Shown here: piece by piece, positions 37,074 through 49,015 of the stretch | How positions within the stretch are numbered: position 1 is the first letter of the stretch | How the letters are laid out: every line of letters begins with the position of its first letter | Source of the DNA: Elusimicrobiota bacterium | GTDB lineage: Bacteria; Elusimicrobiota; Elusimicrobia; UBA1565; JACRDR01 | Assembly: GCA_041694815.1 (NCBI GenBank) | Contig: JBGFSC010000004.1 | Span: 1-64,000, forward strand | Direction of reading: 5' to 3' | Length of the DNA: 64,000 nucleotides | Notes under the pieces: generated by a model | The model's input: only the letters and a program-made list of their open reading frames with translations | Told to the model about the DNA's origin: nothing | Databases searched by the model: none | Position numbers and translations under genes: made by a program

Positions 37074-38723
37074 TTACTCGTGCAGGAAGCTGCCGAAGTA
37101 GATGCGGCGCTTTACCGTCGGCGACTCGGTGAGGTCATCGACGCTCTGGCCGCTCTCGATCTCCTCGAGGCCGAGACCGAAGCGTTCCTTGAAACTCGTG
37201 CGCAGCACGCGGCCGGCCGACTTGCGGCTTTCGAGCAGGTTCTCGCCCCCTTCGTAGAGCAGTACGTGCGAGACGGACTTGGGCGAGCCCGGCTTCGTCA
37301 GGAATACGAGATCGCCGGGCTCGAGGCCCTTGCGGCGTATCGGGGACGCCTTGAGGAACTGCTCGTGCGCGTCCCGGGGCAGCCGCAAGCCGGCGCTGCG
37401 GTAGGCCAGCCCGACGAGTCCTGAGCAGTCGACGCCACGCTCCGAGCGCCCGCCCCAGAGATACGGCTTGCCGAGGAAGGATTTCGCGGATTTAAGCACG
37501 GCCGGGGCGGTGGCCCCATCGGCGGGGGGCGCGGCCTCGGGCCTGTTGAAGGTCAGGGCGTCCGCGCGGGTCCACCCGGTGATGCCGTGCCAGCGGCGCG
37601 TCGGCAGGAAGGCAGGCTGCTCTAAGGCCTCGGCCTTGACCCAATGGCCGCGCGCCTCCAGCAGGCGCAACCTTTCCGCAGGTAGGAGCTGCGAGAGTAA
37701 TTCCGACCCGTCCTCGGGCTCGCGGCGCAGGTCGGCCGTCGTCCCGGCATAGGCCGTCTCCGGGAAGGCCGGCCCCAGAACATAGGCCACCCCGCGTTTG
37801 CGCTTAAGCCAGGCGAGGTAAAAATCCTCGCGGGGGTAGACCCGACGCACCGTCAACCGGCTTGGGGCGGCCGGGTCGTAGGCAACCACTTCCCCCTTGC
37901 GCGTGAATCCCGCGACGACCAATAGATGCCCGGGGGTCCTGCGGATAGGAGCTCCCTGGAGCTCTCCCGGCTCGAAGGCGATCGTGACGACAACCGGACG
38001 TCCCGCGGCAATCTCCTCCTGCAATTCTTCCATCGAATCCATCCGCGCGACGCGGCCCCGCAGCCCATGCATGGCGGCGTAGGCCACGTTGAGCGTCCAG
38101 TTGCCGAAGAGCCCCGAGCCGCGGTCGCGCACGCCGTCTGCTACCGAGATCGTCTTAAGCCGCCGTCCCCAGAAATCAAGCAGCATCGACAGCGAGGTCG
38201 GCGAGCATATATCGCGGCGGTAATTGGACTGCTCCTCCATTTGAGAGCGCGGGCGCAACTTGAGCTCACGTACCCAGGGGCCGGGCTTGAAAGGCTTTAA
38301 GGGCGCGGCCTCTCCTCTCGAATCCCAATGGGCGAAAGAGACCCGTCGCAGCCGCGCCTCGCCGGTCATGAGCACCCTGTAGCGGAAGGCTGTGGCAGGT
38401 TGCTTGAGCTCGAGCGTGTCGACGTTGACCTTGCCCCACTCGTCCTCTTGCTCTCCGAGGCTCGAGCCGACTCCTGCCTCGGACTTGCCCAAGCCGTACC
38501 AGCCCGAGGACTTCTTTCCGTCTTGGACCTGAACCTCCAGCCGCAGGCCGCTGCCGGAAGGCAATTCGGCGTTCCAGGAGCCTACGAGACGGTCGAATGG
38601 TGGCGCCCAGACGAGAGGGGATTCCACGCTTCCGGCACCTTCGAAGAGGCCATCCTCGAAGGCGAGGAGGGAGGGCCCTTCGACGCGCGCGCCCGACACG
38701 TCGAGGGCGGTCGCGTGCGTCAT
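37074..38723 (-). CDS. C39-like peptidase / SH3-like / NlpC-P60 fusion
   Basis: SQM...CSPTS...GHLLVV...YDPA; YLWGG...DCSG...HVLLY. Confidence 0.85.
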   Translation of the reverse strand: MTHATALDVSGARVEGPSLLAFEDGLFEGAGSVESPLVWAPPFDRLVGSWNAELPSGSGLRLEVQVQDGKKSSGWYGLGKSEAGVGSSLGEQEDEWGKVNVDTLELKQPATAFRYRVLMTGEARLRRVSFAHWDSRGEAAPLKPFKPGPWVRELKLRPRSQMEEQSNYRRDICSPTSLSMLLDFWGRRLKTISVADGVRDRGSGLFGNWTLNVAYAAMHGLRGRVARMDSMEELQEEIAAGRPVVVTIAFEPGELQGAPIRRTPGHLLVVAGFTRKGEVVAYDPAAPSRLTVRRVYPREDFYLAWLKRKRGVAYVLGPAFPETAYAGTTADLRREPEDGSELLSQLLPAERLRLLEARGHWVKAEALEQPAFLPTRRWHGITGWTRADALTFNRPEAAPPADGATAPAVLKSAKSFLGKPYLWGGRSERGVDCSGLVGLAYRSAGLRLPRDAHEQFLKASPIRRKGLEPGDLVFLTKPGSPKSVSHVLLYEGGENLLESRKSAGRVLRTSFKERFGLGLEEIESGQSVDDLTESPTVKRRIYFGSFLHE

Positions 38724-41955: not shown

Positions 41956-43278
41956 GTGCGTTGGCTGCTCCTATGCGTAGCCGCGTGCGCGGCACATCCC
42001 GCGCGCGCGGCCATCTTCAACGACGTGCTCCCGGGCGCGCGGCCCATGGGCATGGGAATGGCCTACACGGCCGTCGGCGACGATCCCAGCGCGATGTATT
42101 TCAATCCGGGCGGCCTGGCCGGCTCGGATTTGACCGAGTTTGGCGGCAGCGTGGGGCGCATGTACTCGCCGGTGGGTCCTCTCTCCTTCGTGACGGCCAC
42201 CTATATTCGCCCCCTGCCACTTCGGCCAAATTCCGTCGTCGGCGCCTCGTTTATGACGCTGCGCGAGAACAACGGCGGGGACAAGGATCAGTTCCTGCTG
42301 CATTATTCGGAGCCGATGAAGTTGCCCCAGCTGCAGCTGACCCGGCCGGCGAAGCTCGGCGCCAACCTTAAGTTCATCAACCTCGACGGCGGGACTAAGG
42401 GCGAAAAATTCGGCCTGGGCCTGGATCTCGGGGCCGTGCTGGAATCCGATTTCGGCCTGCGCTTCGGCGCCTCATTGACCGACCTGACTATGAAGCTGGG
42501 CGTCCCCAACCCATCGCTCAACCTGGGCCTGGGGTACAGCTACGATTGGGTGACCGTCGCCACCGATCTCCGCGTGCGGCAAGGAGCGACCGAGTTCTAT
42601 CCCGGTGTCGAGGGGTCGTTCTTCCACGGCCTGCTCAAGGCCCGCCTCGGGAAAGGAATGCCGCTCCACGGGGTCAGCCAGGTCGCTTTTGGGGTGGGGT
42701 TCAATGTATCGCCGGTCATCATCGATTACGCCATGACCATCCCCTTCAAGGGTATCAACCATGCCGGCGGCGCGTACCAAATGACACTTAATTATAAGTT
42801 CGATGCTCCGGTGTTCTACGGCCGCTTCGTGGGCGCCGCCGCCAAGCAGGCCGAGGAGATCAAGATGGAGCTGCTGCGCTTAGAGGATCGGCGCAAGACC
42901 CTCGAGGCGCAGACCCAGACCACCGAGGCGGCCAAATTGTCGCTGGAGGGGGAGCTACGTTCGATGGAATCGCGCGCCAAGAGCCTGCAGGAGGAAGTGC
43001 GCGCCCTGGAGATCCAAGCCGAGCAGCTGCATTACAAGGCGGCGCAGCCACGCCTGCCGAAGGAGACCCCCCCGCCGCCGCCCCCCAAGCCCGCGGCTCC
43101 CCGCTTTCCGCGCCCTCACGCGGTGGTCCCGGGAGACACCTTGCGCTCCTTGGCGGCGATGTATTACGGCGACCCCAATCTTTGGGAGCTCATCTACGAC
43201 GCCAACCCCGACAAGATCGACCGCGGGTTGCCCCAGGAAGGAAGCGTGTTGACCATCCCGCCGCCGGTGAGGCATTAG
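41956..43278 (+). CDS. PorV/PorP-like beta-barrel fused to coiled coil, Pro linker and LysM
   Basis: GARPMGMGMAYTAVGDDPSAMYFNPGGL; heptads; GDTLRSLAAMYYGDPNLWELIYDAN. Confidence 0.8.
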   Translation: MRWLLLCVAACAAHPARAAIFNDVLPGARPMGMGMAYTAVGDDPSAMYFNPGGLAGSDLTEFGGSVGRMYSPVGPLSFVTATYIRPLPLRPNSVVGASFMTLRENNGGDKDQFLLHYSEPMKLPQLQLTRPAKLGANLKFINLDGGTKGEKFGLGLDLGAVLESDFGLRFGASLTDLTMKLGVPNPSLNLGLGYSYDWVTVATDLRVRQGATEFYPGVEGSFFHGLLKARLGKGMPLHGVSQVAFGVGFNVSPVIIDYAMTIPFKGINHAGGAYQMTLNYKFDAPVFYGRFVGAAAKQAEEIKMELLRLEDRRKTLEAQTQTTEAAKLSLEGELRSMESRAKSLQEEVRALEIQAEQLHYKAAQPRLPKETPPPPPPKPAAPRFPRPHAVVPGDTLRSLAAMYYGDPNLWELIYDANPDKIDRGLPQEGSVLTIPPPVRH

Positions 43279-43287
43279 GAAGCTAGT

Positions 43288-44442
43288 ATGGCATTGGTGG
43301 CGCTGCTTGGCTCAGATCCCGAATCGCGGCGCTCCTTGACCCTGGCGATCGAGGAGATGGGCCACCGCGTCTGCGGCCTCCCGACGCTGGAGGCGATGGA
43401 GGAGGCTCTCTCCGGCCAGAGGCCGCAGCTGCTCGTGGTGGCCTGCGAGGAGGGCTCCCGCCAGGCTGAGCTCGCGCTGGCGGAGGCGGACCGGCTCAGC
43501 CCTCTGCTTCCCGTGATCGTCGCCTTGGAGCGCCGCGACGCCTCGCGCGCGGTGGAACTGATGCTGATGGGTGCCTGCGAGGTCGTCCCGCCTCCCTGGA
43601 CCCGGGAGAACCTTTCGGCCTGCGTGGCCAAGGCACTGCGCTCGCGCGGCACGGGCTTCGAGCCGGTGCTTCCTAAGGCCGAGATCCGCCGCAGCCGGCT
43701 GGCGGCGGCCCTGCTCGGGGCTCTGCTCATGGCTGCGGGATTTTTTTCATGGTCGGCGTACCAGCGCCGCCTGGAGGCCATGCGGCCCCAAGCCAATGCT
43801 TGGGATCTGCCGACCTCGCATCCCTCCGGCCTCGCCTACCGCGAAGGGGAGCTCTGGGTGTCGGATTGGTTCTCGCAGAGCGTTTACCGCTACGACGCGC
43901 GGCGGCACGCCTGGCGCCGCGCGGTTTTCTTCCCGAAAGAGACCCCGATGGCCATGACGCTGAGCGCCGACGCCTTGTGGCTGGTCTCGACCCCTGGGCT
44001 GTTCACCAAGCACATGCTCGACGAGCGGCTGACGGCGCTGTCGAAGCTGGCCGATTCCCACGGACCGACCGTCGCGTTGGCATTCGATGGGCTCTACCTC
44101 TGGAGCGTGGACCGCCGCGCCCGCCGTATGCATAAGCGGCTGCTCGACGGCCAATTGACCGTGCTGGCCTCCTACGCGTATCCGGGTGTGGAGCCCGCGG
44201 CGCTGGCCTTCGACGGCAAGGGGCTCTGGTCGCTGGATGCCGCCAATCGCGAATTGCTGCGCCATGAGCTCGAGGACCCCAGGATCGTGACGCGCAAGCT
44301 GCCGCTGCCCGAATACGCGTCGGGGCTCTGGCGCCCCCGGGGCCTGGCCTTCGACGGCGCGTCCTTCTGGAGCGTGGCCGAAGGCAAGGACGCGGCACCG
44401 CGCCCGGGGCGCCTTTTCCGCCACCGGCTGCCCTCCTCATGA
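43288..44442 (+). CDS. Pseudo-receiver / TM / beta-propeller protein
   Basis: Receiver-like fold lacking the phospho-Asp and Lys; one TM; repeated LAFDG-x-LWS blades. Confidence 0.75.
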   Translation: MALVALLGSDPESRRSLTLAIEEMGHRVCGLPTLEAMEEALSGQRPQLLVVACEEGSRQAELALAEADRLSPLLPVIVALERRDASRAVELMLMGACEVVPPPWTRENLSACVAKALRSRGTGFEPVLPKAEIRRSRLAAALLGALLMAAGFFSWSAYQRRLEAMRPQANAWDLPTSHPSGLAYREGELWVSDWFSQSVYRYDARRHAWRRAVFFPKETPMAMTLSADALWLVSTPGLFTKHMLDERLTALSKLADSHGPTVALAFDGLYLWSVDRRARRMHKRLLDGQLTVLASYAYPGVEPAALAFDGKGLWSLDAANRELLRHELEDPRIVTRKLPLPEYASGLWRPRGLAFDGASFWSVAEGKDAAPRPGRLFRHRLPSS

Positions 44443-44762
44443 TCCGGCGATCCTCGAAGACGCTTCCGGTGCGCTTTGATTTTCCTCCCCAGGAGGACCG
44501 ACAGGAGGGTTGGGGTCGATTCCTCGAACTCGGAGCCGGCGGGGCCCGGCTCCTGTCGCGCTTTCGCCTCGGGGATGGGGACAGCCTGCGGCTCGACTTC
44601 GAGCTTTCCGGGGAGACGTTCAACGGCCTGGCAGCCCAGGTCCGGCGGGCGTGGAAGGACGAGGACGGCTATTTCGTGGCCGAGCTGCGCTTTAAGGACG
44701 AGGTCGGAAAGAAGCGGTTGGAGAGAGTCCTGCGCGAGTTCCTCGCGCGCAGCCTTTATTGA
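44439..44762 (+). CDS. PilZ-like domain protein
   Basis: RRSSK...ELGAGGARL, AQVRR, AELRF. Confidence 0.7.
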   Translation: MIRRSSKTLPVRFDFPPQEDRQEGWGRFLELGAGGARLLSRFRLGDGDSLRLDFELSGETFNGLAAQVRRAWKDEDGYFVAELRFKDEVGKKRLERVLREFLARSLY

Positions 44763-45661
44763 CCCTTCGGGGGATGATACCAGGCTCCGCCGCTATTGCT
44801 CGTAGTGGACATGGTCTGCGCGTCCACCTCGAGCATTTTCGCGACGTAGGTAATTTCTTGCGACAGGCTCTTGGCTTCTTCTAGCTTCGGACGGGCCTGC
44901 GGGGCATGATCGTATCGGTAGGTGTTGGGAAGCTCCACGGTGCTGGTCGTTCCGTCCGGGTTGCGCACGGTGGCCGTTCCTCCAAGGGAGACAAGGGTAG
45001 GGGTCGTGGCGATCGTCAATGCCTCATCGGCGGCATCGACTGCTTTTCCGCTCTGGCCGATGAGCCATTGCGCGTCCTTGACGAGAATCGTGGCGTCCTT
45101 GCTGCAATCCTTGGCCGTCTTGGCGGCGTTATCGGCCTTCGCCTTCGCCTCGGCGGCGTATTCCCTGGCTTCCAGTATCCTTACCGTGGCGGCATGGCTG
45201 GCGGGTCCGTCCTGCTGCGTCGCCTCGATTTCGTCGACGGCGCGCGAGGTTTGCTCCACGGCGGCAGCGGCCAGCGAGGCGGTGTTGACCGAACCGTAGA
45301 TGGCGCTGATGCTCAGGCCGCAAGGGTCCGGCTTCGGCGCGCAGGCGGCCAAGAGCAGCGAGAACGCCATCATGGCGGCGAAGGCCGCTCGGAACGCGCC
45401 GCCGCGCCGCGATTGGGCGGCCTTGGCGGCCGGAGACGGCACCCGCTTGATCGCTCGGGCGCTCGGGGAGCCTTCCGGCTTCGCAGTGCTTCTCGAGGAA
45501 GCGCCGGCCGCCACCGCGGAGGAATCCGCCGCGCCGATCTGCGCGCCCTCGAAGAGCGGGCGCGAGGCGACGGCCTGCTCCTCCAGGTCGCCAGCGCGAG
45601 CGGGCGCGAATCCGGCGAAAAAGATAAAAGCGAGTGCGATCAGAAATCCGGACGTTTTCAT
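44756..45661 (-). CDS. Dual-signal putative lipoprotein, paralog 3
   Basis: Sec signal, EEQAVASRPLFEG, internal LLAA-C lipobox, DPC/DC cysteine pair. Confidence 0.8.
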   Translation of the reverse strand: MKTSGFLIALAFIFFAGFAPARAGDLEEQAVASRPLFEGAQIGAADSSAVAAGASSRSTAKPEGSPSARAIKRVPSPAAKAAQSRRGGAFRAAFAAMMAFSLLLAACAPKPDPCGLSISAIYGSVNTASLAAAAVEQTSRAVDEIEATQQDGPASHAATVRILEAREYAAEAKAKADNAAKTAKDCSKDATILVKDAQWLIGQSGKAVDAADEALTIATTPTLVSLGGTATVRNPDGTTSTVELPNTYRYDHAPQARPKLEEAKSLSQEITYVAKMLEVDAQTMSTTSNSGGAWYHPPKGQ

Positions 45662-46518
45662 CGGCTCTTTTGCGCGCTGGCCGGCAGGCGGGCGGCGGCT
45701 TGTTGGAGCGCGCCGACGCGGGCGAGAGACTCTTTCGATGAATTCTGCGCGGCGGAGAGTTCATCCTTCGCGCCCGAAACGTCGTTATTATAATGATCGA
45801 CGCGGCGATCGGTAATCCCGTCGTTGTCGTCGTCGTAGCGGTGGGTATGGGTCGCCTGCTCGTAGGAGTCCCGTAACGCGGAGACCGTATGATCGTTTTG
45901 GGCCACCAGATTTTGGGCGTCGGCGACGACGTGGGTCGCTTCTGGCGCGCAGTCCGGCGCGACCCCAAAGGCCTTGCCGACGCTGGCGCGCGCCTCGCGC
46001 GCGGCTTGTTCCGCGTTGGCTACAGCGGATTTCGCGGCCCTCGACTTTTCGTGCCGGTTCGCGCTGATTCCCTTGCTTAACTCTTGAACGGCCGCCTCGC
46101 TTTTTTCAACCGCCGTTACGGTCTGCCCAACGGCGTTTTGGGTCAGTTCGCATGGATCAACAGGTTTGCCGCCGCAGGCGCCGAGCACAAGGGAGACGGC
46201 CATGAGGGCCACCATGAATGCGCCGAAAAATCCGCGCCCCTGGGACCGCACTTTCGCCTCCGCGCCTGCCGGGGCGGCAACGATGCGCGTCCCGCGGCCA
46301 CGATCGGCCGTTGACGGCGAGGCAAGACTGGCCCTCCCCGCCGCGTTAGCCTCCCGTTGGACCGCGACGCTCGCGGGCGCTGCGGCCTGTTGTCCTTCAA
46401 ACAGCGGTCGTGACGCTACGGCTTGCTCCTCGATGCTTCCGCGAGAATCTTGAGCGGATCCGATGGACAGGCAGCCCATGGCCCCCGCGGCCAAGAGGAA
46501 AATTTTGCGCGCGTTCAC
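45658..46518 (-). CDS. Dual-signal putative lipoprotein, paralog 2
   Basis: Sec signal, EEQAVASRPLFEG, internal VLGA-C lipobox. Confidence 0.8.
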   Translation of the reverse strand: MNARKIFLLAAGAMGCLSIGSAQDSRGSIEEQAVASRPLFEGQQAAAPASVAVQREANAAGRASLASPSTADRGRGTRIVAAPAGAEAKVRSQGRGFFGAFMVALMAVSLVLGACGGKPVDPCELTQNAVGQTVTAVEKSEAAVQELSKGISANRHEKSRAAKSAVANAEQAAREARASVGKAFGVAPDCAPEATHVVADAQNLVAQNDHTVSALRDSYEQATHTHRYDDDNDGITDRRVDHYNNDVSGAKDELSAAQNSSKESLARVGALQQAAARLPASAQKSR

Positions 46519-47426
46519 TTGTTTCCCGTCGTGGAATTAGGGATGTTGGCAGCGGTCTGCTTGAGAGCGTCGAGCTCGGTTAGGGCGCGTTGCAGGGAAG
46601 CCTGGGCGGCCTTTAGGGATTCTTTCGCGGCCCCGAGCTTGGAGTCGGACACCCACACATCGTCTCCCGAGATGGTTGTCGTGGTGCCATCGGCATTCTG
46701 AATCGTCGTGTCGCCAGTATAATAAGTCGCTTGATCGTACGCTTTTCGGGCGATATCATTCGTACCGCGATTTTGCGCCAAGAGATTCTGCGCGTCGGCT
46801 AAGGCATGCGTGGCCTCCGGCGAGCAGTCGGGAGCGGTTTGGAACGCGGTTTTGACGGCACCTTGGGCCGCATGTTGAGCGTCGCGTGCGCGGCCGATCG
46901 CGTTCTTGGAATCATAGGGGCTTGCCCTGGAGCCGCGTTCAGTATGGACGCTCTTATCCAATGTTTGCACGGCGGATTCGCTTTTCCCGACGGCGTTGGC
47001 CGTCTGGGATATGGCGTTCTGGGTCAATTCGCAGGGGTCGGTGATCTTTGTCCCGCCCCCGCAGGCGCTTAGCAGGCCCAGCGCGAGTAATCCGACCATG
47101 AGCGCCGCCGCTACCCGGCGGCCCAGGCCGGGTCGTTTTTGAGATCGAACATTCGCGGGCGCCGGAGGCTGTGATTTTGATCGGAGTTGCGAGGCCTGCT
47201 GTGGGGCCCCGCCGACGGATGATCCCGACGCGTTGCCGAGGTTCACAGACGGATCTCGTGGCCCGATCTGCGTCCCCTCAAATGTTGGCCGCGACGCGAC
47301 GGCCTGCTCTTCAAGGGAGCCGCTCGGTTCGGCGGAAATGACCGTGGGGGTTAGGGCGAGCGTGATGATTAAAAAGCCAGAGAGTTTTATTGCAAAAACA
47401 GCCGTCGGGATATTTCCTTTGTTCAT
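46515..47426 (-). CDS. Dual-signal putative lipoprotein, paralog 1
   Basis: Sec signal, EEQAVASRPTFEG, internal LLSA-C lipobox; ATG at 47426 with RBS GGGAG. Confidence 0.8.
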   Translation of the reverse strand: MNKGNIPTAVFAIKLSGFLIITLALTPTVISAEPSGSLEEQAVASRPTFEGTQIGPRDPSVNLGNASGSSVGGAPQQASQLRSKSQPPAPANVRSQKRPGLGRRVAAALMVGLLALGLLSACGGGTKITDPCELTQNAISQTANAVGKSESAVQTLDKSVHTERGSRASPYDSKNAIGRARDAQHAAQGAVKTAFQTAPDCSPEATHALADAQNLLAQNRGTNDIARKAYDQATYYTGDTTIQNADGTTTTISGDDVWVSDSKLGAAKESLKAAQASLQRALTELDALKQTAANIPNSTTGNK

Positions 47427-47436
47427 CGATCTCCCG

Positions 47437-48213
47437 CTATTTGCCGTCGAGCTTCTGCCCCAGCAGGCGGCCGATTTTCCCAATGAGCCGGGAACCCTTG
47501 ACGGCGCCTATCACAGTCCCGACGAGCGACGCCAAGGCCACGAGTTGCATGAGTCCCTCGGCCCCACCAACCAAACTGAGAAGCGATGCCGCCATGAACG
47601 ATACGGTCAGCACAGCTCCGCCACCCAGCACCAGACCCAAGAAGCCGCCCAGCTTTTCCAGAACTCCCGCCCAAGTGAGGAAGGGAGGCCCAGGCTCCTT
47701 GCCGATCTTCCTGGCGAGCCAGGCCCCGAGATGGCCGCCTATCATGAAGCCGCCAGTGCCGCCGATTCCCAAGCCCAGGAGAAATAGGACGGGCGCCACT
47801 ATGAAAAGCAGTCCTATGAGCGCAAAACCGGCCCCCTCATTGTAGGGCGCATTGGGGTTGGTGAGGTAGGAGACGTTGGCCGCGACGGTATGCACCGCCC
47901 AGCCCGCGCCGGCAATAGCTCCGGACAGCATGCCGACAGCTTTTCCTGTGTCTCGCCCGAACTTGCTCTTGGGACCCTCCTCAGAGGGAGGCTCTGGCGG
48001 CTCGGAGCAATCGAGCGCCCGCCGTCCCGCCGTAACCGGAGCCACGGGGCGCGCCAATTTAAGCGCTTCGCGGATCGATGGCGCCTCAGGCGCGGATCCA
48101 TTAACCTTGTTATGGTCGAAGAGTTGAGCGGCCGCTGCAGCATCCTTCTCTGGGACCTGCGCCCCGGCGAGGCTTGGGCCGAGCAGAAAAATGATAAATA
48201 ACGCGTCCTTCAT
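47437..48213 (-). CDS. Secreted glycine-zipper membrane protein
   Basis: Signal peptide, AAQLFD leader, Pro-rich linker, multiple GxxxG hydrophobic helices. Confidence 0.75.
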   Translation of the reverse strand: MKDALFIIFLLGPSLAGAQVPEKDAAAAAQLFDHNKVNGSAPEAPSIREALKLARPVAPVTAGRRALDCSEPPEPPSEEGPKSKFGRDTGKAVGMLSGAIAGAGWAVHTVAANVSYLTNPNAPYNEGAGFALIGLLFIVAPVLFLLGLGIGGTGGFMIGGHLGAWLARKIGKEPGPPFLTWAGVLEKLGGFLGLVLGGGAVLTVSFMAASLLSLVGGAEGLMQLVALASLVGTVIGAVKGSRLIGKIGRLLGQKLDGK

Positions 48214-48400: not shown

Positions 48401-48434
48401 GGAGATACTTTAAACAGTACATTTGGAGGTACTA

Positions 48435-48713
48435 ATGGAGATTCATCCCCGTCAGGGCGTCCAGCCGATTTCCGACTTCCGCAAGGACAGCGCTCGAGTG
48501 CTAAAGCTGCTCCGCGAACGCCGGGAGCCGGTGATTTTGACCCAGAGAGGCCGTTCGGTGGCTGTCCTATTGGACGTTGAAACCTATGAGCGGTTGGAAT
48601 ATGCCTCGGGTTTGAGGGCCTCCTACATGAGAGGCGTCGAAGATCTCAAGCGGGGGCGGGCTCGCCCGCATGAGGAGGTCGCCAAAGAGGTGTTGGGCCG
48701 TCTTCGCGCATGA
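48435..48713 (+). CDS. Phd/YefM family antitoxin
   Basis: PISDFRK, PVILTQRGRSVAVLLDVETYE. Confidence 0.92.
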   Translation: MEIHPRQGVQPISDFRKDSARVLKLLRERREPVILTQRGRSVAVLLDVETYERLEYASGLRASYMRGVEDLKRGRARPHEEVAKEVLGRLRA

Positions 48714-49015
48714 AACGATGTTCCGTCCGCTGGTCCGCCGAGGCTATCGGCAACCTGCGGGCGATCATCGAGCATATCGCCGTTGACTCGCCCTCCCGCG
48801 CGCATGCTTTCGCGGAAAAATTGCTTCAAAGCGCGGCGCGCCTGGGCGCCTTTCCTGGCTCCGGAAGGAGGGTGCCTGAACTTGCAGACCAGATTCCGCC
48901 ACCCCGCGAGATTTTGGTCGGGGAGTATAGGCTGCTTTACCGGGAGGGCGCCCGTGGCGTGGAAATCGTCACGATCGTCCATGGCCGCAGGCTGCTGCCG
49001 CGGTTCCGGGAATAG
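48710..49015 (+). CDS. RelE/ParE family toxin
   Basis: VRWSAEA, FPGSGRRVPE, REILVGEYRLLY, IVHGRR; ATGA overlap. Confidence 0.92.
   Translation: MKRCSVRWSAEAIGNLRAIIEHIAVDSPSRAHAFAEKLLQSAARLGAFPGSGRRVPELADQIPPPREILVGEYRLLYREGARGVEIVTIVHGRRLLPRFRE

Follow-up and report, generated by a model that had tools for sequence, protein, structure and literature searches.

A lipoprotein-type signal nested behind a Sec-type signal, a conserved tag and a spacer in a tandem protein family of an Elusimicrobiota bacterium

What is a complete lipoprotein-type signal doing in the interior of a protein that already begins with an export signal? Lipoprotein signals are textbook N-terminal signals. The question is raised by three adjacent genes, here called paralogs A, B and C, that occupy positions 44,756 to 47,426 on the minus strand of a stretch of 64,000 nucleotides from an Elusimicrobiota bacterium (assembly GCA_041694815.1, contig JBGFSC010000004.1, positions 1 to 64,000). 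We refer to this whole stretch as the window. The source assembly has a size of 2.77 Mb in 54 contigs and is 97.8% complete. The original prediction, made from the letters of the window, described three tandem paralogs with two signals each and a conserved leader between the signals. Translation of the genes bears this out, and the family is larger than three: it comprises 14 paralogs in the genome and one metagenomic homolog (P0018), all of which have the two-signal plan. Sequence comparisons show that both modules are translated as one chain and that both are under protein-level selection. We consider it possible, with a probability of roughly 40%, that these proteins are composite precursors in which both signals are used and the nested lipoprotein signal is functional.

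Paralogs A, B and C are 34–43% identical to each other overall. Each of them starts with a Sec-type signal of 32, 22 and 23 amino acids, respectively, which ends in ..VISA, ..IGSA and ..PARA, with small residues at positions −1 and −3 as judged by eye. The signal is followed by a tag of 16 amino acids with the pattern G-S/D-L/I-EEQAVASRP-T/L-FEG, and the tag by a spacer rich in Ser, Pro, Ala and Gly. This spacer had been described as a poorly conserved linker of about 45 amino acids; it is indeed poorly conserved, and its measured length is shorter, at 41, 41 and 40 amino acids in A, B and C. The nested segment comes next. It consists of a basic cluster, an uncharged stretch and a lipobox that reads LLSAC in A, VLGAC in B and LLAAC in C. 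The mature part that follows has about 170–195 amino acids. The features of the locus are as follows.

46515..47426, minus strand: paralog A, whole gene (303 amino acids plus stop, ATG start), from translation.
47331..47426, minus strand: first signal of A, amino acids 1–32, ending in VISA, recognized by sequence pattern only.
47274..47321, minus strand: tag of A, GSLEEQAVASRPTFEG, amino acids 36–51, from the tag profile and translation.
47151..47273, minus strand: spacer of A, 41 amino acids, Ser/Pro/Ala/Gly-rich, predicted to be disordered with a predicted local distance difference test score (pLDDT) <50.
47061..47150, minus strand: nested lipoprotein-type signal of A, amino acids 93–122, with a +5 basic region, a 17 amino acid uncharged stretch, LSAC and Cys122.
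46518..47060, minus strand: Gly-rich tether of A and predicted four-helix bundle with a beta-hairpin insert (helices 131–162, 168–195, 203–233 and 261–293; invariant Cys132 and Cys201).
45658..46518, minus strand: paralog B, whole gene (286 amino acids, GTG start), from translation.
46393-46440, minus strand: tag of B, GSIEEQAVASRPLFEG.
46174-46269, minus strand: nested signal of B, ending in LGAC.
44756..45661, minus strand: paralog C, whole gene (301 amino acids, ATG start), from translation.
45545-45592, minus strand: tag of C, GDLEEQAVASRPLFEG.
45341-45424, minus strand: nested signal of C, ending in LAAC.
47437..48213, minus strand: first gene of the operon, 258 amino acids; a signal-like start and the tag variant EKDAAAAAQLFDH precede a spacer and several hydrophobic segments.

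The A/B and B/C junctions are 4-bp overlaps of stop and start codons (GTGA and ATGA), and a gap of 10 nt separates the stop of the 258 amino acid gene from the start of A. Because of these overlaps and this gap, the four genes from 48213 to 44756 are read as one tight operon. The first gene has the same prefix as A, B and C, is otherwise unrelated to them and has no Pfam match. Over 13 codons of the tag, the gene pairs differ by 6–9 synonymous as against 0–1 non-synonymous codon differences. The tag is therefore conserved as a protein, and the same synonymous differences rule out that it is an RNA or DNA element.

A wider profile of the family matches the genome 15 times. The window accounts for three of these matches and contig C9 for a tandem array of eight; C15 has a tandem pair, C17 a single copy and C24 one weak match. 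The two-signal plan is repeated in all of these except the C24 group, and none of the 15 family members has a stop codon between the two signals. The link is shorter in the C9 group, where the first signal is followed by Q-D/E-F-G/D/S or D-L-G, then by about 25 amino acids and the nested signal. P0018, a protein of 308 amino acids, is encoded on a metagenomic contig of 3.8 kb. Its first signal is followed by a W-D-G motif and a spacer, then by RRGRRG, a hydrophobic stretch and LVGC; the two Cys residues of the mature part are present as well. A HMMER profile search of 1.84 billion representative proteins gave 23 matches at E <= 0.001. These include the 14 family members of the genome, the C24 paralog of the same genome (P0025) and one true outside homolog, P0018. 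The other seven (P0017 and P0019–P0024) were set aside as repeat proteins or as generic combinations of a signal and a helix, and P0020–P0024 and locus L072 were likewise rejected as homologs of the helical bundle, which they match only via a generic signal plus helix. Searched with the family profile, 40 relatives from the same family or order gave no match. Nor did the family turn up in 400 further Elusimicrobiota genomes; the only two matches there are weak, one being an ordinary N-terminal ankyrin/PDZ lipoprotein, which was discarded, and the other lying inside an open reading frame (ORF) of 1672 amino acids.

Other searches recovered little. A word-index search with A returned its own shortened gene call as the sole match, a search of the ESM Atlas gave no usable match, and scans of A, B and C with Pfam and NCBIfam gave nothing above cut-off. 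Below cut-off, residues 102–131 of A match NF058595 'invert_tail', a lipo-invert putative C-terminal anchoring domain (15.3 bits, E 0.019, against a cut-off of 37 bits), and B alone matches the NF040598 Lpp/OprI alanine-zipper lipoprotein family (15 bits, against a cut-off of 43 bits). A literature search for 'lipo-invert' found nothing.

The features of the nested signal were compared in an alignment of the 15 family members, which are 17–41% identical to A. The only invariant columns of this alignment are three Cys residues: the lipobox Cys (C122 of A), C132 and C201. The original prediction had an internal Cys at the lipobox, and this residue is invariant in 15/15 members. Every member has +3 to +6 charges in the 12 residues ahead of the hydrophobic stretch, a hydrophobic region (h-region) of 12–19 uncharged amino acids up to the Cys, and Ala, Gly or Ser at position −1 of the lipobox. 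A relaxed lipobox pattern fits all 15 members and the strict pattern [LVI][ASTVI][GAS]C fits 7/15. The 15 residues after the Cys have 0–2 positive and 0–3 negative charges. From the lipobox Cys to the next Cys there are 7–15 residues, and this variable Gly/Pro/Thr-rich stretch resembles, at the level of sequence, the tether of a lipoprotein. All members have an even number of Cys residues (2 or 4) downstream of the lipobox Cys; this includes P0009, in which the second Cys pair is placed differently from that of its paralogs. The genome encodes the enzymes that would act on such a signal, with one locus each for Lgt (PF01790, 169.9 bits) and LspA (PF01252, 125.2 bits), and a loose scan, whose hits include false positives, found ordinary N-terminal lipoproteins with LSAC, LAAC and LGAC boxes. 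What sets the family apart from substrates of signal peptidase II is placement: the lipobox Cys lies at residue 61–122, behind another signal, and not in an N-terminal signal. A signal for the twin-arginine translocation (Tat) system was also considered and rejected; the twin arginine occurs in some but not all of the basic regions that open the nested signal (n-regions), and Tat would leave the topology unsolved. Judged by charge, length, box, tether and even Cys count, the nested signal is real, conserved and lipoprotein-like.

These same features bear on the main rival explanation, in which A, B and C are type-I membrane proteins. The first signal would be cleaved, the tag and spacer would form a periplasmic, fixed-length tether for docking to a partner, the second segment would stop transfer, the bundle would be cytoplasmic, and the likeness to a lipobox would be incidental or the Cys would have another role. 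The charge bias of the segment is the reverse of what this topology calls for, with +3 to +6 before it and at most +2 after it in 15/15 members. In all 15 the segment closes with an invariant Cys preceded by small residues, a variable Gly/Pro tether follows that Cys, the bundle has an even number of Cys residues throughout the family, and the best fold matches of the bundle are periplasmic sensor domains, although that last point is weak evidence. A plain transmembrane anchor, which the original prediction had named among the outcomes that would undo its reading, is unlike the nested segment in charge bias and in its invariant Cys, and it stays the main competitor for reasons that are weighed further below.

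The mature domain was predicted to be helical, and an AlphaFold2 model of A, built with the 15-sequence alignment, agrees. It is an antiparallel four-helix bundle (131–162, 168–195, 203–233 and 261–293) with a beta-hairpin insert and a pLDDT mostly >90. Residues 1–118 have a pLDDT under ~57, and helices are drawn there only for the h-region (102–118) and for seven residues of the tag. In this model Cys132 is at the start of helix 1 and Cys201 in the turn between helices 2 and 3. Since this places the two residues at the same pole of the up-down bundle, we infer that they may form a disulfide. An exhaustive structure aligner ranked periplasmic four-helix-bundle sensor domains at the top (4k0d_B, Z 13.5, root mean square deviation 2.9, 140 residues), and the sensor domains of PcaY, McpS, Tar, Tsr and TorS scored Z 11–13. 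No PDB sequence scored below E 0.028 in a profile search. There are two DsbA-like ORFs in the genome. From the even Cys counts, the Cys pole, the DsbA-like ORFs and the fold matches, the bundle is probably outside the cytoplasm.

Could the first signal simply be unused? In that case translation would start internally, the product would be an ordinary lipoprotein, and the long form would be a minor or regulatory isoform. The public gene calls give the short form in 3/14 members: A begins at Met110 (P0004), B at the GTG of residue 90 (P0008) and a C9 member, C9:85478-86089, at an internal Met (P0015), with lengths of 194, 197 and 150 amino acids, respectively. Such internal starts strip the first signal and the tag from the protein, and the architecture is hidden in public protein sets as a result. 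The case for internal starts is best in B, which has GGAGG 10 nt before the GTG of residue 90 and whose short product would open with a textbook lipoprotein signal. Among the 7/13 genes covered by this check, five have an in-frame start 25–36 codons before the Cys; only B has a Shine-Dalgarno-like site, and in A and one C9 member the sole internal starts lie inside the hydrophobic stretch, which would leave no basic n-region. GTG is, moreover, a common Val codon at the G+C content of this genome. The first signal and the tag are kept in 15/15 members and are under selection at the protein level, and the 4-bp overlaps put the starts of the long forms at the preceding stop codons. Internal initiation ahead of the nested signal, which would have undone the original prediction, is thus not conserved: a Shine-Dalgarno-like site is present in 1/7 genes, and there is no start ahead of the basic region in 2/7. 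We regard this explanation as improbable.

The tag extends beyond the two-signal family. A hidden Markov model of the tag found the motif in many other ORFs of the genome, always straight after a signal-like start. In an alignment of 18 tag sequences the only invariant residues are a Glu and a Phe at a distance of ten positions, and Ala, Ser or Gly occurs in between. The profile made from these 18 sequences matches 21 ORFs in the genome and has one or two matches each in 16/300 other Elusimicrobiota genomes, where the motif follows a signal in 12/17 loci read by eye. The expectation that the leader would be found on unrelated cargos therefore holds. The cargos in other genomes include alpha-amylase-type enzymes in four genomes (confirmed by Pfam on one), a PF10091 glucoamylase-type enzyme, and small proteins with one or two membrane segments. 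The alpha-amylase-type and glucoamylase-type enzymes have no second hydrophobic segment. The tag directly follows the signal of these secreted enzymes, and it therefore belongs to the mature N-terminus of exported proteins; by this reading of the sequences the tag lies outside the cytoplasm.

Behind the tag, all tagged ORFs of the source genome have a spacer, in most cases a basic cluster, and at least one hydrophobic segment after that. The distance from the Phe of the tag to the start of the uncharged segment is 50–61 residues in 18/21 ORFs, even as the sequence of the spacer is poorly conserved. Two of the three outliers have a weak first segment that was skipped by the segment finder, and the third is a false parse. 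The corresponding distance is 54 residues in P0018, 62–75 in three membrane proteins of other genomes (two more being mis-parsed) and 23–30 in six of the seven C9-group members covered, the seventh being unparsed. The near-constant distance suggests a molecular ruler. Additionally, the two-pass tagged proteins have basic clusters on both outer flanks, a short neutral loop and a cleavable-looking signal in front, and they show the same conflict of topology as the nested-signal family.

These distributions also bear on what the original prediction made of the leader. It proposed that the leader is a targeting signal for a second step, and that the nested signal is used only after a second translocation, for example into a host or prey cell, or after cleavage of the leader. 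A second-step role dedicated to nested signals is excluded by the glycosidases of other genomes, which bear the tag and lack a second signal; in the source genome the tag stands mostly before ordinary membrane segments. The idea that A, B and C are effectors delivered into another cell, whose Sec, Lgt and LspA would use the nested signal, formally resolves the conflict of topology, and lineage-specific expansion, which this family shows, is common among effector families. However, nothing was found in support of a second translocation: no secretion system, host-association marker or toxin-like domain was seen beside the four clusters, ordinary glycosidases carry the same tag, and entry into a cytoplasm followed by re-export would be a long route to the periplasm. 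We consider effector delivery very improbable.

How, then, would one chain use both signals? In the composite precursor that we favor, the first module is the prefix, made of a putatively cleavable Sec-type signal, an amphipathic tag and a disordered spacer of fixed length; the prefix is also found at the head of unrelated exported and membrane proteins in this and other Elusimicrobiota genomes. The second module would be a complete prolipoprotein, in which a basic n-region and a short h-region lead up to the lipobox Cys, and a Gly/Pro-rich tether links this Cys to a four-helix bundle with a conserved Cys pair. The first signal would take the tag and spacer across the inner membrane and be removed by signal peptidase I. 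As a short, signal-like segment, the nested signal would not serve as a permanent stop-transfer anchor and would come to face Lgt and LspA on the periplasmic side. A single gene would thereby yield a lipidated helical-bundle protein and a leftover peptide of tag, spacer and h-region, whose layout would be that of the other small tag-bearing membrane proteins.

Several points weigh against this reading, and the weakest step is topology. If the tag and the bundle are both outside, a nested signal that just crosses the membrane with its basic end in the cytoplasm is ruled out, and one short hydrophobic stretch in one membrane cannot satisfy tag-out, bundle-out and N-end-in together. By the standard logic of Sec, a chain moving outward offers the nested signal to Lgt and LspA in the wrong orientation. 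Work on microsomes of the endoplasmic reticulum is a precedent in part: a signal placed behind a working N-terminal signal is reported to cross the membrane without stopping transfer, which speaks for the composite precursor, and the interior signal is reported not to be cleaved, which speaks against it (PMC2114505). There are also four tandem paralogs on C24 (C24:36310-40014, equal to L059:3311-7015, minus strand) that have a variant of the tag, S-x-E-x-Q-H-x-x-A-A-x-L-T-D-G-V, and a spacer. Their hydrophobic segment lacks a lipobox Cys, and a related Cys-containing helical domain is present in three of the four and absent from the short fourth. The basic cluster and the hydrophobic segment may, on the strength of these paralogs, have a meaning unrelated to lipoprotein processing. 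The prefix likewise precedes ordinary membrane segments in 15/21 tagged ORFs, which have no lipobox and show one-, two- and multi-pass segments with the same plan of spacer, basic cluster and membrane segment. Counting the Gly, Ala and Thr residues after the Cys, the uncharged stretch reaches 18–27 amino acids, which is enough for a normal membrane anchor. Descent of the bundle from a lipoprotein would be shown by an ordinary N-terminal lipoprotein among its homologs, and none was found. Designed bundles are tied at Z 12.9, and such scores are possibly generic for helical bundles according to the aligner; Foldseek found nothing against the PDB at E <= 0.001; and DsbB and VKOR were not found in the 97.8% complete genome, which weakens the disulfide argument.

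Several of these points count in favor of type-I membrane proteins. That topology is the default outcome of Sec for a chain of this kind, and the distance of 50–61 residues from tag to membrane in 18/21 ORFs suggests a ruler on one side of the membrane. The prefix ahead of ordinary membrane segments, the 18–27 amino acid stretch, the C24 paralogs without lipobox Cys and the failure to find DsbB and VKOR all fit it as well. Set against the charge bias and the invariant Cys described above, these points leave the type-I explanation unlikely, and still a serious one.

A further explanation is re-sorting with the help of ATP. An exported AAA+ machine (ATPases associated with diverse cellular activities) would, once Sec has exported the tag and spacer, grip the disordered N-terminal tail and pull the nested signal or hairpin from or through the inner membrane, after which Lgt and LspA, or another membrane, would receive it. 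A disordered tail of fixed length is a typical handle for AAA+ machines. What speaks for this is gene context: signal-like starts are found on 4/5 Clp/Hsp100-type AAA+ ORFs and on a second adenylate kinase, and the array of eight genes on C9 is followed, on the same strand, by the gene of a 1573 amino acid AAA+ protein. The argument rests wholly on this context, however; the signal-like starts may be membrane anchors, and the cluster in the window has no AAA+ neighbor. Active re-sorting of this kind seems improbable to us. A broader version is that some Elusimicrobiota have a post-Sec sorting process, in which an N-terminal tag, carried by a fixed-length spacer of ~55 residues, would be bound in the extracytoplasmic space. 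Possible candidates for this binding are the exported AAA+ ATPases that this genome encodes together with an adenylate kinase that has a signal-like start. The nested signal or hairpin would then be re-oriented or moved to its final membrane, and the three genes of the window would be substrates that end in lipidation. We consider this improbable. If true, such sorting would explain >20 proteins of the source genome in which the charge bias of the membrane segment contradicts the topology set by the first signal.

The surroundings of the other clusters can be described as follows. The second adenylate kinase and the four Clp/Hsp100-type ORFs with signal-like starts are at C9:74398-74847 (plus strand), C9:74955-79676 (minus strand, equal to L056:2956-7677), C25:56562, C15:4531 and C2:24263; the housekeeping copy of adenylate kinase is on contig C48. 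The array on C9 is followed on the same strand by a signal-bearing 2-oxoglutarate-iron (2OG-Fe) dioxygenase and the signal-bearing double-AAA+ protein of 1573 amino acids, which has a tag-like ..AERLFDGS.. after its signal. The second adenylate kinase is convergent to these two genes. The pair on C15 is directly followed, at C15:13378-16369 (equal to L057:9379-12370, plus strand), by the gene of a 514 amino acid protein with a signal-like start and the middle and C-terminal domains of FliG, and then by MotA/ExbB-type and MotB/OmpA-type genes.

In the window, the end of the operon faces a convergent PilZ gene (44439..44762, plus strand), whose end overlaps the end of gene C by 7 nt. Two larger ORFs of 440 and 384 amino acids without Pfam match precede the PilZ gene at 41956-44442 (plus strand). 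The start of the operon is divergent from a pair of genes for a Phd/YefM antitoxin and a ParE toxin at 48423-49015 (plus strand). Farther away, at 37074-38723 (minus strand), lies the gene of a 549 amino acid protein with Peptidase_C39-like, SH3 and NlpC/P60 domains.

Several known systems resemble the composite precursor in part. It has the basic n-region, short h-region, small residues at −1 and −2, Cys at +1 and flexible tether of bacterial prolipoproteins, and Lgt and LspA are encoded in the genome, whereas the signal here begins 60–100 residues into the protein, behind a signal, a tag and a spacer. Hayashi et al. 1985 (J Biol Chem 260:5753) and Coleman, Inukai and Inouye 1985 (Cell 43:351) reportedly engineered internalized or tandem prolipoprotein signals. 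In these constructs, as in the interiorized haemagglutinin signal of the microsome study (PMC2114505), a signal is likewise placed behind extra sequence or behind another signal; they are laboratory constructs, while the family described here is natural and conserved. The extended signal peptide region (ESPR) of autotransporters and two-partner secretion proteins also has two charged and two hydrophobic regions in series within a conserved N-terminal extension. It differs from the present family in its length of about 25 amino acids and in lacking a spacer, a lipobox and a cleavage site behind the first hydrophobic region, and none of the Pfam matches of A, B and C at E <= 1 is ESPR-like.

The bipartite presequences of thylakoid-lumen and mitochondrial intermembrane-space proteins share the layout of two serial targeting signals, but they cross two membranes with two machineries, and no second membrane system is known here. 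The TolB box and TonB box, together with the Pro-rich spacers of TonB and TolA, are comparable in that a short conserved peptide ends a disordered spacer of periplasm length; they differ in having no sequence likeness to the tag, and the tether here is N-terminal to the membrane segment. M13 procoat and type-I proteins have a cleavable signal and then a second hydrophobic segment, with positive charges after that segment rather than before it. Literature searches on internal or second lipoprotein signals found nothing relevant, and searches on Elusimicrobia and lipoproteins found no article on nested signals by title or abstract. To our knowledge, no natural family with a nested two-signal layout has been described; the parts are known, and their nesting, the shared tag and the constant spacer would be new.

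What the family means depends on how its signals are used. If it nests its signals naturally, then either Lgt and LspA can process signals inside a chain in vivo and a single gene yields two envelope products, or the lineage has an undescribed sorting step. The prefix, for its part, would be an uncharacterised N-terminal module for sorting or docking, carried by glycosidases and small membrane proteins across part of the phylum. In the source genome, it is found on proteins whose charge distribution breaks the positive-inside rule.

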